From: an uncultured Candidatus Saccharibacteria bacterium
GTDB lineage: Bacteria > Patescibacteriota > UBA1384 > XYA2-FULL-43-10 > 1-14-0-10-43-13
Assembly: GCA_964543385.1 (NCBI GenBank)
Contig: CAZIYE010000001.1
Span: 270,001 to 302,000, forward strand
Length of the DNA: 32,000 nt
Reading direction: 5' to 3'
A program made the translations under genes and the position numbers. Of the stretch, positions 5,280 to 24,712 are shown piece by piece. How positions within the stretch are numbered: position 1 is the stretch's first letter; each line of letters begins with the position of its first letter. A model generated the notes under the pieces. That model ran no database searches and had not been told where the DNA came from. It saw nothing but the letters and a program-made list of their open reading frames with translations.

Positions 5280-5395
5280 GTTGGCGCTGTTCTACTCTCC
5301 CGGGGCCTTGCAGCCCGAGTACCATCGACGCGGAGATGCTTAACTTCTCTGTTCGGAATGGGAAGAGGTGTACCCATCTCGCTATAAGCACCAAC
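5280..5395 (-). rRNA. rrf: 5S rRNA
   Basis: The reverse complement aligns with bacterial 5S landmarks (CCATCGACGCGGAG, CTTAACTTCTCTGTTCGGAATGGGAAGAGGTG). Terminal helix is GTTGGTGC/GCGCCAAC. Confidence 0.9.
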
Positions 5396-5595
5396 ACTTA
5401 ACTTACAAATTGGCTTTGTTTTGAAAGAATGCCTTTCAAATGGAGTAAGATTAAAGAGAATCTTACCCCCATTTGAAAATCAACATGAGCTCGATCCAGC
5501 ATGCCAGCATCGCCCCTCATCCTTTCGCAAAGAAAGGATGAGCGAGTCGTGCCAACACAAAGGTATCTTAAACGCTCGACAATTACTGGAATAAT

Positions 5596-5629
5596 CCAGA
5601 AATTACTAGTCAAGAAAATATTTCATTGC
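5596..5629 (-). promoter_or_regulatory. 23S trailer half of the processing stem
   Basis: 5596-5614 is the exact reverse complement (19/19) of 8525-8543. 5614-5629 pairs with 8434-8450 in a helix-1-like stem. Confidence 0.75.
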
Positions 5630-8445
5630 TATCGACCGATTAGTACTTCTCGGCTCAGGATATCGCTACCCTTACACCTAAAGCCTATCAACCTCGTAGT
5701 CTTCGAGGGGTCTTTAAAGAAACCTAATCTTGTGGCCGGCTTCGCGCTTATATGCTTTCAGCGCTTATCCAATAAGACATAGCTACTCTGCAATGCACTA
5801 GGTTAGTGCAACAGATACACCAGTGGTCTACGCTCCCCGGTCCTCTCGTACTAGGGGAACACCCACTCAAGTTTCAACGCTCACAGCAGATTAGGACCGA
5901 ACTGTCTCACGACGTTCTGAACCCAGCTCGCGTGCCCTTTTAATTGGCGAACAGCCAAACCCTTGGGACCTGCTTCAGCCCCAGGATAGGACGAGCCGAC
6001 ATCGAGGTGCCAAACCGCATCGTCTATGTGGACTATTGGATGCGATCAGCCTGTTATCCCCGGGGTAACTTTTATCCGTTGAGCGATATCTCTATCACGA
6101 GATGATATCGGATCATTAAATCCCGCTTTCGCGTCTGTTCGACTTGTAGGTCTCACAGTTAAGCACGCTTATGCTTTTATACTTCGAGGCCCGATTTCCA
6201 TCCGGGCTAAGCGTACCTTTGAACGCCTCCGTTACAATTTAGGAGGCAACCGCCCCAGTTAAACTACCCACCTAGCACTGTCCCCGAACCGTATCACAGA
6301 TTCAGGTTAGAACCAGAAAAATTCAAGGGTGGTATTTCACTGTTGACTCCACCTCGACCAAGGCCAAGGTTTCAAAGTCTCCCACCTATGCTACGCATGA
6401 ATTTTCCCAATCCAATACCAAGCTATAGTAAAGCTCCACGGGGTCTTTCCGTCTTGCTGCGAGTAATCGGCATCTTTACCGACTATGTAATTTCACCGGA
6501 TCTTACGTTGAGACAGTGTCCAGATCGTTATGCCATTCGTGCGGGTCGGAACTTACCCGACAAGGAATTTCGCTACCATAGGACCGTTATAGTTACGGCC
6601 GCCATTCACTCGGGCTTAGTCGTTCGCCTAGCCCCTTACGGGGATCAGCAACCGGTTTGACCTTCGAGCATTGGGCAGGCATCAGCCCCTATACATCATC
6701 TTACGATTTAGCAGGGACCTGTGTTTTTGGTAAACAGTCGCCTGGACTCTTTAGCTGCGACCTACGCTTGCGCGCAGGTAGCCCTTATCCCGAAGTTACG
6801 GACGCTTTTTTGCAGAGTTCCTTAACGTAAGTTCTTCCGATCACCTGAGGCTTCTCGCCTCATCCACCTGAGTCGGTTTGCGGTACGGCTCTGTATGCTT
6901 TTGAACCAGATTTTTCTTGTCCCCGGATACACCATATAAAATAAACCATTATTTTTATATGACTACTCCAAGGCGTCATCTGGGTATACATACAGGAGTG
7001 GAGGATTATTAACCTCACTGCCCATCGTCTACGCTGCCACTACAACAGCCTCAACTTAGGACCGACTAACCCTGGGACGATTACCGTTGCCCAGGAAACC
7101 TCGGATATTTGGTGGCCATGTTTCTCGCATGGCAAATTCGTTACTCATCCCAACATTCTCGCTTCTTGGCACTCCAGCCCACCTCACAGTGTGACCTTCG
7201 CTGCACCAAGAACGCTCCTCTACCGCTCTACGTAAACGTAGAACCCGTGTCTTCGGTTATAATCTTGAGCCCCGTTAAATTTTCCGCGCAAAACCTCTTA
7301 ACTAGACCAGTGAGCTATTACGCACTCTTTAAATGCATGGCTGCTTCTAAGCCAACATCCTGGTTGTTTTGGAGATTTCACTACGTTTTCCACTTAGATT
7401 ATAATTAGGGACCTTAGACGACGGTCTGGGCTGTTTCCCTTTTGAGCGCGAAGCTTAGCCCTCGCGTTCTGACTCTGGTATGAATCAGGAAGAATTCGGA
7501 GTTTGTTTGAGTACGACAACCGAAGTCGCCGTAACCCAGTCAGTGCTCTACCTCTTCCTGCGACAAAATACCAGGCTATACCTATATATATTTCGAGGAG
7601 AACCAGCTATTTCCAGGTTCGATTGGAATTTCTCCGCTACCCACAGCTCATCCATCAACTTTGACACGTTGAGTGGTTCGGCCCTTCATTCGATGTTACT
7701 CGAACTTCAGCCTGTCCATGGGTAGATCACCTGGTTTCGGGTCTAGTATGTACAACTAATCGGCCATTTAGGCCTCGCTTTCACTACGCCTCCGGGTATT
7801 ATCCTTAAGCTTGCTGCACATAGCTAACTCGTTGGGTCATTCTACAAAAGGCACGCCATCACCCCGACTTGCGTCGGGACTCTGACTCTTTGTAAGCGTA
7901 TGGTTTCAGGTTCTATTTCACTCCCCTTATCGGGGTTCTTTTTACCTTTCCTTCACAGTACTTGTTCACTATCGGTGAGAAGTGGTATTTAGCCTTGGAC
8001 CGTGAACGGTCCAGCTTCACACCAGGTTTCACGTGTCTGGTGCTACTCGGGAACATCACCTCTCTGTTACTCGGATTTTAAGTAAGCGACTATCACGCTC
8101 TATGGTCGTCCTTTCCAGGCTCGTTCCTCTATCCTTTTACATTGATTATGTGAGTCCCACAACCCCGCTCGAATAAATTCGGCGGTTTGGGCTTCTCCCT
8201 GTTCGCTCGCCACTACTAAGGGAATCACTTTCGTTTTCTTTTCCTCCGGCTACTAAGATGTTTCAGTTCACCGGCTTACCTACCTATCCAAATAAATTGG
8301 ATGGTCTAAAGGGTTTCCCCATTCGGAAATTCTCGGATCAAAGCTTATTTGACAGCTCCCCGAGACTTATCGCAGTCTACCACGTCCTTCATCGGCCAAC
8401 TTCTCCCAAGGCATCCACCATACGCCTTTAAACGCAACGAAATAT
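5615..8445 (-). rRNA. rrl: 23S rRNA (~2.83 kb)
   Basis: Conserved blocks on the reverse complement: GGTGGATGCCTTGG, ATTTCCGAATGGGGAAACCC, GGATAACAGGCTGAT and the sarcin-ricin region AGTACGAGAGGACC. Ends are set from flank pairing, +/-10 nt. Confidence 0.95.
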
Positions 8446-8543
8446 TTTTCTTTAGAGGTCGAATAATTGGAGACAAGATTTCTTATTGCTAAGAAGTTCT
8501 GTCCCCACTACCCGACATAAATATCTTGACTAGTAATTTCTGG
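8434..8543 (-). promoter_or_regulatory. 23S leader half of the processing stem (two pairing blocks separated by 74 nt)
   Basis: 8525-8543 pairs 19/19 with 5596-5614, and 8434-8450 pairs with 5614-5629. Confidence 0.7.
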
Positions 8544-8896
8544 ATTCGTATAAATACGAATGAAATTACTATTTGAGAAATTTTTATTATCGGAAGATAA
8601 CTCTTAAATGAAATTACATTATTATAATTACTCGTTATAATTATCTTTTGTGTGCTTGCATAGAGATCAATAAATGATCTTGCAGGTATATACAAACACT
8701 ATGAAATTGTTAAGGTTCAGGGCAAAAAATGCAATTTATGAAACTTTTGCCTCATAGTTACATTTTTGTCAAATATAATGGATATTTTGACCAAAAAATC
8801 AATAAGCAGATATTTGTCCCGCGTATGCTGGGATAGTTTACCCGCAACCCCCCTGTGTAGTGTGAAATAAGTTCTAACTTTTACTTACTAAAAGAG

Positions 8897-22961: not shown

Positions 22962-24408
22962 AAAGGAGGTGATCCATCCCCACCTTCCGATAGGGATACC
23001 TTGTTACGACTTAGTCCTGATTACCGATCCCACCGTGGTGCCCTGTTGGGCGCTTCGGGCGTTACCGACTTTCCTGACTTGACGGGCGGTGTGTACAAGA
23101 CCCGAGAACGTATTCACCGTAGTATGGCTGACCTACGGTTACTAGCGATTCCGACTTCATGAGGGCGAGTTTCAGCCCTCAATCCGAACTGAGGGTAGTT
23201 TTAGCGGGATTAGCTCCACCTTACGGTTTGGCAACCCTTTGTACCTACCCATTGTAACACGTGTGTCGCCCAGGGTGTAAGGGCCACGCTGATCTGACGT
23301 CATCCCCACCTTCCTCCGATTTAACACCGGCAGTCTCGTATGATAAATTCAACATACGATAGGGGTTGCGCTCGTTTACCGACTTAACGGGACACTTCAC
23401 AGCACGAGCTGACGACGACCGTGCAGCACCTGTCTTAGAGCTCCTTACGGCACTCCCTAGTTTCTTAGGGATTCTCTAGATGTCAAACCCTGGTAAGGTT
23501 CTTCGCTTGTTGACGAATTAAACCACATGTTCCACCGCTTGTGCGGGTCCCCGTCAATTCCTTTGAGTTTTAGCCTTGCGGCCGTACTACCCAGGCGGCA
23601 TGCTTAACGCGTTAGCTTCGAAACACAGAGGGTCGATTCTCCGAATTCCTAGCATGCATCGTTTACGGCGTGGACTACCGGGGTATCTAATCCCGTTTGC
23701 TCCCCACGCTTTCGCTCCTCAGTGTCAGGTAATGCCCAGAAGACTGTCTTCACCATTGGCGTTCCTCATAATATCTACGCATTTCACTGCTACACTATGA
23801 GTTCCATCTTCCCCTGCACACCTCTAGTCAGAAAGTTTCAGATACGTTTTCCAGGTTGAGCCTGGACCTTTCATATCTGACTTTTCAAACCACCTACGAG
23901 CTCTTTACGCCCAATAAATCCGGATAATGTTTGCACCCTACGTATTACCGCGGCTGCTGGCACGTAGTTAGCCGGTGCTTATTCATCAGGTACCTTCAAG
24001 ATTATTCCCTGATAAAAGAAGTTTACGATCCGAAAACCTTCATCCTTCACGCAGTGTTGCTGCATCAGACTTGCGTCCATTGTGCAAAATTCCCTACTGC
24101 TGCCTCCCGTAGGAGTATGGGCCGTGTCTCAGTCCCATCGAGGCTGGTCATCCTCTCAGACCAGCTACCCGTCATTGCCTTGGTAAGCCATTACCTTACC
24201 AACAAGCTGATAGGAGGAAGGCCACTCCCGAACCGATAAATCTTTACCCTTGCGGGACTATCCAGGTTTACCCACCCTTTCGGGTGGCTATCCTTGAGTT
24301 CGGGGCATGTTCCTTCCTATTACTCTCTCGTCTGCCGCTATATCGCTCGACTTGCATGTATTAGGCACACTGCCAACATTAATCCTGAGCCAGGATCAAA
24401 CTCTCCAT
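22962..24408 (-). rRNA. rrs: 16S rRNA (~1.45 kb)
   Basis: On the reverse complement: AGAGTTTGATCCTGGCTCAG, GTGCCAGCAGCCGCGGTAATAC, GGATTAGATACCC, TGTACACACCGCCCGTC and the 3' GGATCACCTCCTTTCT. Confidence 0.96.
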
Positions 24409-24557
24409 GTAAACAATGCACCAAAGTGCATCGTTTTTATTGAGTTTGATTAGCTCTATAAAAATACTAATCAAAAATTATTCTCTCAAAAGAATTGCCT
24501 ACTAGACCCTTCAGCTCCGCCAATAAATTGGCTTTGCTTCTAGGTTTTTCAGACAAA

Positions 24558-24584
24558 CGTACTTATCACTATTTAGTTGTAAAA
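24558..24584 (-). promoter_or_regulatory. 16S leader half of the processing stem
   Basis: Pairs with 22821-22848. A boxA-like TTCTTTTGAGAG (24494..24483) lies between this stem and the 16S gene; that call is tentative. Confidence 0.7.
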
Positions 24585-24683
24585 GAACGTTGTCCCGCCT
24601 CAAAAACAAACGAGACAAAAATACTAGCAAAAATAAACAATCCCCTTATAGAAATTTCTATTTAATTTTTGCAGCTAAAGTGA

Positions 24684-24712
24684 ATACTATCGAAAAAAAC
24701 CCATCTTGTCAA
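24684..24712 (-). promoter_or_regulatory. 16S promoter TTGACA-17-TAGTAT
   Basis: -35 at 24712..24707 and -10 at 24689..24684. It sits just downstream of terminator 24743-24772 and about 275 nt upstream of 16S. Confidence 0.55.

Follow-up and report, generated by a model that had tools for sequence, protein, structure and literature searches.

Bacteria of the candidate phyla radiation (CPR) typically carry unlinked ribosomal RNA (rRNA) genes, and the Patescibacteria are among the clades in which unlinking is the rule; in the work that established this, genes more than 1,500 bp apart were counted as unlinked (Brewer et al., bioRxiv 10.1101/705046). Among the 34 circularised CPR genomes of Lui et al. 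(2021), rRNA genes were unlinked in 27 (PMC8172020). One of the arrangements distinguished there, type D, has the rRNA genes on the same strand, unlinked by distance and with opposite-strand genes lying between. Gaps between 16S and 23S in complete Microgenomatia genomes amount to 2.9, 4.9, 7.8, 8.5, 9.0 and 11.7 kb, and some exceed 300 kb (PMC8172020 Table S1). Here we describe an rRNA locus in a 32,000-nt stretch (hereafter the window) of contig CAZIYE010000001.1, assembly GCA_964543385.1, in which the genes for 16S rRNA, two transfer RNAs (tRNA-Ile and tRNA-Ala), 23S rRNA and 5S rRNA keep the order of an rrn operon while protein genes lie between them.

Expanded or split rRNA loci are known outside the CPR as well. 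In the Lyme group of Borrelia, the rrs-rrl spacer is several kb long (4617 bp in B. garinii) and contains tRNA-Ala and tRNA-Ile, the latter oppositely oriented, together with the protein genes mag and a cof-type hydrolase (PMC2688082, PMC4370689). Separation of 16S from a 23S-5S pair is cited for Rickettsia, Buchnera, Wolbachia, Helicobacter and Thermus (PMC8172020).

We located rRNA genes with Rfam models and tRNA genes with ARAGORN (Table 1). All five stable-RNA genes lie on the minus strand in the order 16S, tRNA-Ile, tRNA-Ala, 23S, 5S, as a preliminary description of this DNA had stated, and together span 19.4 kb. The distance between 16S and 23S, given there as about 14.5 kb, measures 14,520 nt, and that between 23S and 5S 224 nt. 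The 3' end of the 16S gene retains the anti-Shine-Dalgarno sequence CCTCCT. About 15 protein genes are spread over the three former spacer intervals: one between 16S and tRNA-Ile, eight between the two tRNAs, and five to seven between tRNA-Ala and 23S. Earlier counts of nine and six for the last two intervals were roughly right, and the single gene of the first does encode the transporter of the MFS family reported for it, with a match to Pfam MFS_1. A common strand and canonical order are what a co-transcribed rrn operon has. The locus departs from a canonical operon in its spacer, where at most 1,500 bp would be expected between 16S and 23S (Brewer et al.), and, judged by sequence, in having more than one promoter and internal terminators. 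Its same-strand 16S-23S distance puts it among unlinked genes, for which the threshold is 1,500-2,000 bp (Brewer et al.; Lui et al., type D), and the HAD-like gene on the plus strand is an opposite-strand gene as in type D; with such a gene between the rRNA genes, a single promoter would be unable to serve both. By our own estimate, which is not a computed test, the probability that these two tRNAs would come to lie by chance within 14.5 kb of a ~0.7 Mb genome with the correct order and strand is about 1e-4 to 1e-5. Since the canonical order is kept, the operon appears to have been stretched in place, in agreement with the earlier wording "dismantled in place".

Table 1. Features of the dispersed rRNA locus (window positions unless L168, the contig of a relative, is named).
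Feature	Position	Strand	Evidence and details
16S rRNA	22962-24411	minus	Rfam full model 1-1533, 1477 bits; complete, 1450 nt
tRNA-Ile(GAU)	21362-21438	minus	ARAGORN
tRNA-Ala(UGC)	13623-13698	minus	ARAGORN
23S rRNA	5620-8441	minus	Rfam full model 1-2925, 2538 bits; complete, 2822 nt
5S rRNA	5279-5395	minus	Rfam
16S promoter (predicted)	24684-24712	minus	TTGACA-17-TAGTAT, 10/12 consensus matches; just past the terminator of the upstream gene (24738-24777)
boxA-like motif, 16S leader	24577-24588	minus	GTTCTTTTACAA; overlaps 5' helix arm (24564-24586)
16S leader-trailer helix	24564-24586 with 22819-22841	minus	repeat search, 23 nt at 96%
16S intrinsic terminator (predicted)	22791-22812	minus	hairpin 22798-22812 GTCGCC-GAAA-GGCGAT, T7 22791-22797, -14.2 kcal/mol
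tRNA-Ile promoter (predicted)	21471-21499	minus	TTGAAA-17-TAGTAT, TG ahead of -10 hexamer
tRNA-Ile leader-trailer helix	21345-21362 with 21441-21458	minus	18 nt at 89%, T7 at 21343-21349
tRNA-Ala promoter-like site	13724-13752	minus	TTGAAA-17-TACTAT, 9/12 consensus matches
tRNA-Ala terminator (predicted)	13588-13620	minus	AT-rich 13-15 bp hairpin, -14.9 kcal/mol
23S-5S promoter (predicted)	8897-8926	minus	TTGACA-18-TACATT, TG ahead of -10; ~480 nt upstream of 23S
23S leader	8442-8896	minus	conserved blocks CACACTACACA, boxA-like GAACCTTAACAA (8707-8718), ATCTTCCGATAA...TTTCTCAAA
23S processing helix	8524-8546 with 5593-5615	minus	23/23, repeat search
5S leader-trailer helix	5255-5288 with 5387-5420	minus	34 nt at 82%, -66.6 kcal/mol, ends in T6 (5255-5260)
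MFS transporter	21522-22760	minus	Pfam MFS_1, 4.8e-35; same position in L001, L007
Na+/H+ exchanger + TrkA_N fusion (Kef-type antiporter)	19563-21269	minus	Pfam
DUF1861 protein	18484-19506	minus	Pfam 5.5e-88; in L002, absent in L007
GC-rich gene	17886-18401	minus	171 aa, GC 0.55-0.58 vs ~0.36 in surroundings
Pilin-like cluster	14209-17684	minus	440-aa (CarboxypepD_reg + TIG), 194-aa N_methyl pilin, 447-aa, then 64-aa protein; Pfam
Acidic 146-aa protein	13760-14200	minus	no family match; window genome only
~84-nt non-coding element, two copies	12649-12732, 13140-13223	minus	each ends in GTTCCACCA, then terminator hairpin + T-run
DUF4190 small membrane protein	12777-13034	minus	between the two ~84-nt copies
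499-aa protein (unassigned function), UppS, 147-aa membrane protein	9525-12452	minus	Pfam Prenyltransf 1.2e-77 (UppS = undecaprenyl diphosphate synthase)
HAD-like phosphatase	9015-9479	plus	DIDGTL motif; PHROG 415 polynucleotide-kinase phosphatase-like, 1e-10
L168 16S rRNA	L168 295-1744		
L168 tRNA-Ile	L168 5055-5131		
L168 tRNA-Ala	L168 9303-9378		inverted
L168 23S rRNA	L168 11680-14500		
L168 5S rRNA	L168 14728-14844		

Assemblies of metagenomes are notoriously prone to breaks and mis-joins at rRNA and tRNA genes, and four related contigs (L001, L002, L007 and L167) do end at or near such genes, so that a chimera fused within these conserved sequences has to be considered. Runs SRR12261227 and SRR12261226 yielded independent read-level assemblies in the form of Logan contigs. 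Of these, L001 agrees at 100% identity with window positions 21413-23193, covering the 3' end of 16S, the MFS gene and the start of tRNA-Ile, and L167 is 100% identical to positions 7894-13698, from tRNA-Ala into 23S. The remaining junctions are covered by close relatives, namely L002 (tRNA-Ile, antiporter, pilin) and L007 (antiporter, tRNA-Ala, UppS). Cumulative GC skew is smooth over the entire window. The same gene order is also found in other genera, on the 868-kb contig L168 and the 51.6-kb contig seen as L173 and L087. Taken together, these findings effectively refute an assembly artefact.

The contigs from other genera, the second of which was seen in two views (L173 and L087), allow the age of the layout to be judged. 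Compared with the window, L168 is 94% identical in 16S and 89.5% in 23S, and L173/L087 91% and 88%, respectively. The order in L168 is 16S, four genes, tRNA-Ile, six genes, inverted tRNA-Ala, a 147-aa gene, UppS, a membrane protein, 23S and 5S, with a 16S-23S gap of 9.9 kb. In L173/L087 it is 16S, three genes, inverted tRNA-Ile, the pilin cluster, a Memo-like gene, a small protein, tRNA-Ala, nine genes including UppS, 23S and 5S, with a gap of ~15.8 kb. Shorter contigs of closer relatives show parts of the same arrangement: L007 (~91% protein identity) has MFS, tRNA-Ile, antiporter, a small protein, tRNA-Ala, three other genes, UppS and the membrane protein, and L002 (70-80% identity) has MFS, three extra genes, tRNA-Ile, antiporter, DUF1861, the pilin cluster and the small protein. 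As tRNA-Ile is inverted in L087/L173 and L008, and tRNA-Ala in L168, location of all genes on one strand is not fixed in the clade. The preliminary description took the retention of both spacer tRNAs in the original order for an unusually clear intermediate. This view is supported only in part, since the same dispersed order at 94% and 91% 16S identity speaks for an old, stable state at the family level and not for a transitional one.

The five genes might instead have been scattered by rearrangement, the canonical order being coincidental or due to secondary re-clustering. In some CPR genomes 16S and 23S do lie hundreds of kb from each other or on different strands (PMC8172020 Table S1), and the tRNA inversions show that rearrangement occurs in the region. 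We nevertheless regard scattering as very unlikely, because all three genomes viewed in full preserve the order although the genes in between have been replaced almost completely. Cargo genes differ almost throughout among the three genera, and just three linkages survive: tRNA-Ala has the 64-aa protein beside it; UppS is located a few kb upstream of 23S, with the 147-aa membrane protein directly after it in L007 and L168; and, after 5S, a PadR-like gene and then Fpg, reached directly or, in L168, past three inserted pilin-like genes. The first two of these small links fit gradual insertion into a fixed frame. An ancestral 16S-tRNA-Ile-tRNA-Ala-23S-5S operon would thus have been stretched in place by protein genes inserted into its three spacers, and the resulting layout would be ancestral to a family-level clade, kept while the cargo turns over and the tRNAs occasionally invert.

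Wider searches define how far this layout extends. Homologues of the MFS protein in L003-L006 (58-59% identity) lie in unrelated contexts; for a contig of GCA_041447055.1, whose MFS protein is 92% identical, the gene table only was used. A metagenome scan with UppS returned mostly unrelated bacteria, L087 (58% identity) being the sole useful match. UppS homologues in L170, L171 and L172 (55-62% identity) are not located beside rRNA genes, so that the link between UppS and 23S appears limited to the clade. A genome scan with the antiporter yielded chiefly DPANN archaea and distant CPR bacteria, L007 and L008 being the only close matches. Among the other CPR loci, those scanned for RNA genes had neither rRNA genes nor spacer tRNAs nearby, and blastn of all loci for 16S and 23S found none.

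Within the frame, the RNA genes carry signals of their own, whose conservation, like the gene positions and flanking helices, can be observed directly. For 16S, the preliminary description had named a promoter, a leader-trailer stem and a hairpin terminator with seven T residues, and all three were recovered. The promoter was found by a scan of the window and has counterparts at the same aligned position in L168 (TTGACA-17-TAACAT) and L173 (TTGACA-17-TAATAT). The stem came out of a repeat search and, by reading, continues to ~29 bp if a single bulge is allowed; the window and L168 differ on both sides at two positions, where pairing is preserved (A-U to G-C and U-A to A-U). A leader block including the boxA-like element is conserved in L168 and L173, its likeness to boxA being judged against the E. 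coli consensus. The terminator recurs in both relatives right after the trailer with other stems, GAGCCC-CT-GGGCTC followed by T6 in L168 and TCGCACA-GAAA-TGTGTGA followed by T7 in L173. Retention of this structure while its stem sequence differs in each of the three genomes is the strongest sign that 16S transcription ends there. These features support 16S as a separate transcription unit. It would be monocistronic, with its own sigma-70-type promoter, a leader with a boxA-like element and a leader-trailer helix that is probably a substrate of RNase III, and its transcript would be terminated intrinsically straight after the trailer.

A further terminator-like hairpin lies in the 16S leader just upstream of the boxA-like motif (24590-24618, minus strand; 11 pairs, then CGTTCTTTTA). 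It has no counterpart in L168 or L173 and might be an attenuator or functionless.

No promoter had been named earlier for 23S. The best candidate is the one in Table 1, whose TTGACA and -10 hexamers have aligned counterparts in L087 and L168; it is oriented away from the promoter-like site of the HAD-like gene on the plus strand (8954-8982, 11/12 matches). The conserved leader blocks and the boxA-like motif that follow likewise align in all three genomes. The flanking stem of 23S, described previously as 19/19, is real and longer. Relative to L087, two of its pairs carry substitutions in both arms and two more a substitution in one arm that leaves a wobble pair; relative to L168 the terminal pair is swapped. 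Helices flanking 5S and tRNA-Ile are new additions to what had been noted. A separate 23S-5S transcription unit is supported by these elements. It would form a two-gene operon with its own promoter, a ~480-nt leader and a 23-bp processing helix, closed by the 5S helix with its T-run.

For tRNA-Ile, the promoter reported earlier proved to be conserved in five genomes, two of them from other genera. The form TTGAA(A/T)-17-TA(N)TAT is present at a similar short upstream distance in the window, L007, L002 and L087, and in L087 it has moved together with the inverted gene and lies on the strand of that gene; in L168 TTGAAA-17-TATTAT is found ~100 nt upstream. A hairpin ending in a T-run is present 3' of tRNA-Ile in the window, L002, L007, L087 and L168. 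The flanking helix itself is retained in L007, whereas L002 and L087 carry local hairpin and T-run terminators instead. Because the helix of the window ends in T7, one structure could serve as both processing stem and terminator. The tRNA-Ile gene is thus supported as a separate transcription unit, which would be driven by its own promoter and end at the helix with its T7 run. The case of tRNA-Ala is different. The promoter-like site and terminator named for it are both present in the window, and a hairpin with T-run follows the gene in L007 and L168 as well, with a weak one seen by eye in L087. The inverted tRNA-Ala of L168 has its own TTGATC-17-TATAAT. In the window genome the gene would have a promoter-like site and end at its own hairpin terminator; in L007 and L087 its transcription may be supplied by the small gene upstream. 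The earlier statement that each RNA is autonomous is therefore upheld for 16S, tRNA-Ile and 23S-5S, whose signals are conserved in other genera, and is weakest for tRNA-Ala.

Could these genes be decaying, non-functional copies, with a compact functional operon elsewhere in the genome? Nothing that we observed points to this, and their condition makes it scarcely credible: each of the three rRNAs scores highly against its full-length model, L007 and L087/L173 have an identical tRNA-Ala, L002 and L087/L173 have an identical tRNA-Ile, with a single mismatch in the tRNA-Ile of L007, and the processing helices show compensatory changes. L168, moreover, has a single rRNA set in the 20.7 kb read.

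We consider it probable that an rrn operon was stretched in place, that 16S, tRNA-Ile and 23S-5S are expressed separately, and that this layout is old. The former operon would then no longer act as a single unit, and the intercalated protein genes would be ordinary cargo. The competing possibility is that the locus is still one giant operon, in which a boxA-modified polymerase starting at the 16S promoter passes the hairpins and produces one 19-kb precursor; some CPR cases with tRNAs or open reading frames (ORFs) between rRNA genes are indeed counted as operonic in PMC8172020. Several points count in its favour or otherwise weaken our interpretation. Of the 15 intercalated genes, 14 run in the same direction as the RNAs, and boxA-like motifs occur in the 16S as well as the 23S leader, so partial read-through by an antitermination-modified polymerase is possible. 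Promoter-like hexamer pairs are common in this AT-rich window (71 sites versus 54 +/- 8 in shuffled sequence); a consensus match by itself is thus weak, and support for the promoters comes from their conservation in relatives. The tRNA-Ala promoter has no counterpart in L007 or L087, which makes autonomy of this gene the weakest claim. The entire layout is seen in three genomes only, and from their sequences we infer start sites, termination with its efficiency, and processing. The host is probably a member of CPR/Patescibacteria and Microgenomatia-like, its class level following from names of homologues and not from 16S classification: the named homologues belong to Daviesbacteria, Beckwithbacteria, Levyibacteriota and "Patescibacteria group", the rRNAs are short, and the GC content of the genome is low (~0.36). 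One giant operon is nonetheless unlikely in our judgement. It does not agree with a hairpin and T-run after the 16S trailer in three genera, with the terminators after both tRNAs, with the conserved promoter upstream of 23S, with the opposite-strand gene preceding 23S with a promoter-like site of its own, or with the inverted tRNA genes in L168, L087 and L008. The DNA flanking the RNA genes is likewise almost all minus strand, so that co-orientation more likely reflects a regional strand bias than membership in an operon.

Turning to the cargo itself, the antiporter has its closest relatives in the genome collection in L007 (91%) and L008 (71%). The next-best homologues come from DPANN archaea (Woesearchaeota, Pacearchaeota, Nanoarchaeota; 53-56%), most CPR bacteria having 44-53%, which suggests gene transfer between ultra-small bacteria and archaea. 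The GC-rich gene has a good ribosome-binding site, and its 171-aa product contains two CxxC motifs and has one other family member (47% identity) among 1.84 billion representative proteins. L002 lacks the gene and has a 144-nt gap at the same spot; the gene was probably acquired recently from a foreign source by insertion into the pilin cluster, and is found in the window genome only. Interpretation of the GC-rich 17.7-18.5 kb segment as a hidden RNA was rejected, as a permissive Rfam search gave no match and the segment holds a protein gene with one distant relative. The pilin-like cluster is syntenic in L002, L087/L173 and L174. The acidic 146-aa protein gave no tblastn match in the relatives. 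The HAD-like gene is the sole opposite-strand gene of the whole 16S-23S interval; it lies between tRNA-Ala and 23S, where small ORFs are also found.

The more distant L174 has the pilin cluster and an inverted tRNA-Ala, with no rRNA genes within 10 kb. One of its pilin-like proteins is 57% identical to that of the window. Upstream of the cluster, in the place taken by tRNA-Ile and 16S in other genomes, lies a defence island (L174 2511-8913) coding for Shedu SduA, a PD-(D/E)XK nuclease, a restriction enzyme with methylase, Vsr and a PLD-like protein.

Downstream of tRNA-Ala, the two copies of a ~84-nt non-coding element end in a sequence that resembles the 3' end of a tRNA. Further copies occur in L168 (8598-8682, minus) and L087 (8678-8730), 87% identical over 85 nt and 54 nt, respectively, to one or other window copy. 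This value is close to the 88-89% of the 23S genes of those genomes, and L087 has the same terminator stem as copy 1. A permissive Rfam search gave no match to the element. As a structured RNA it was rejected, the consensus fold being weak (-4.9 kcal/mol) with little covariation outside the terminator. Possible identities of the element are a small RNA, a conserved leader and a decayed tRNA gene.

Traces of recombination at the spacer tRNAs are found in the relatives. L168 (4972-5197) has an exact 49-nt duplicate of the 3' part of tRNA-Ile 17 nt past the intact gene, and a 10-nt fragment of its 5' part just after the conserved promoter. In L008 (1815-1857) a tRNA-Ile fragment in inverted orientation lies ~780 nt away from the gene, itself inverted, and L007 (4555-4568) has an inverted T-arm fragment of tRNA-Ala. 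Two sequence variants of tRNA-Ile exist in the clade. These scars make recombination at the spacer tRNAs a plausible contributor to the turnover of cargo and to the inversions. In the window, no integrase, transposase or recombinase families were found among the intercalated proteins, and no fragments of tRNA-Ile or tRNA-Ala elsewhere had E below 0.4; a tRNA-anchored, integrase-mediated genomic island was rejected for the window, with neither an integrase nor a tRNA 3'-end repeat at its border.

The three former rrn spacers might be preferred landing sites for new genes in this family, a proposal we make tentatively and think more doubtful than not. With a strong promoter and a terminator insulating each of them, the RNA genes would act as fixed anchors, and the DNA between them would be exchanged more rapidly than other parts of the genome, in part by recombination at the spacer tRNAs. 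Hints in this direction are the almost full replacement of gene content between the anchors in genera at 94% 16S identity, a cargo that includes an antiporter whose best homologues after L007 and L008 are from DPANN archaea and a GC-rich near-orphan, the defence island of L174 and the tRNA scars in L168, L008 and L007. The upstream flank of 16S is also unconserved, so turnover may be high genome-wide, which weakens the proposal.

The locus is a well-documented example of an rrn operon coming apart, in which spacers gain genes while the order of the RNAs stays frozen, and in which each RNA would gain or retain a promoter, a processing helix and a terminator of its own. It leaves the current view of how rRNA genes are organised unchanged. 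In practice, typing by 16S-internal transcribed spacer-23S amplicons or long reads will fail for this clade, and short-read assemblies will fragment at the locus. The conserved promoter and terminator motifs are usable as a first promoter model for uncultured Microgenomatia-like bacteria.

Compared with rrn operons of the E. coli type, the window shares the gene order, separate helices around 16S and 23S, and boxA-like motifs ahead of both. It differs in spacers that total 14.5 kb as opposed to ~0.4 kb, in predicted terminators after 16S and both tRNAs, in predicted promoters before tRNA-Ile and 23S, and in an opposite-strand gene within the interval. With Borrelia it has in common that both spacer tRNAs are kept in an expanded 16S-23S interval together with protein genes. 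There, in contrast, tRNA-Ala precedes tRNA-Ile, 23S-5S is tandemly duplicated, and the spacer is 3 to 5 times shorter with fewer genes; Borrelia being an unrelated lineage, the likeness is an architectural parallel and not homology. Like Rickettsia, Buchnera, Wolbachia, Helicobacter and Thermus, whose genomes have few rRNA copies, the window has 16S and 23S-5S as apparently independent units, but the parts are usually far apart in those genomes, whereas here everything lies within 19.4 kb in the original order. Spacer tRNAs are not known to be retained in order between 16S and 23S in any of these five.

The closest match is type D of the CPR, an already documented pattern into which the window layout fits: 16S lies on the same strand as a linked 23S-5S pair and apart from it, with protein genes between and at least one of them on the opposite strand, and the gap of 14.5 kb is of the same order of size as those of 2.9-11.7 kb. 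The CPR studies (Brewer et al.; Lui et al.) give distances and strands, without positions of spacer tRNAs or promoters, terminators and helices of the single genes. What the present locus adds to the published distance tables is that both tRNAs remain between 16S and 23S in their canonical order in three genera, a state persisting across a family-level clade, together with the signals that accompany each gene.

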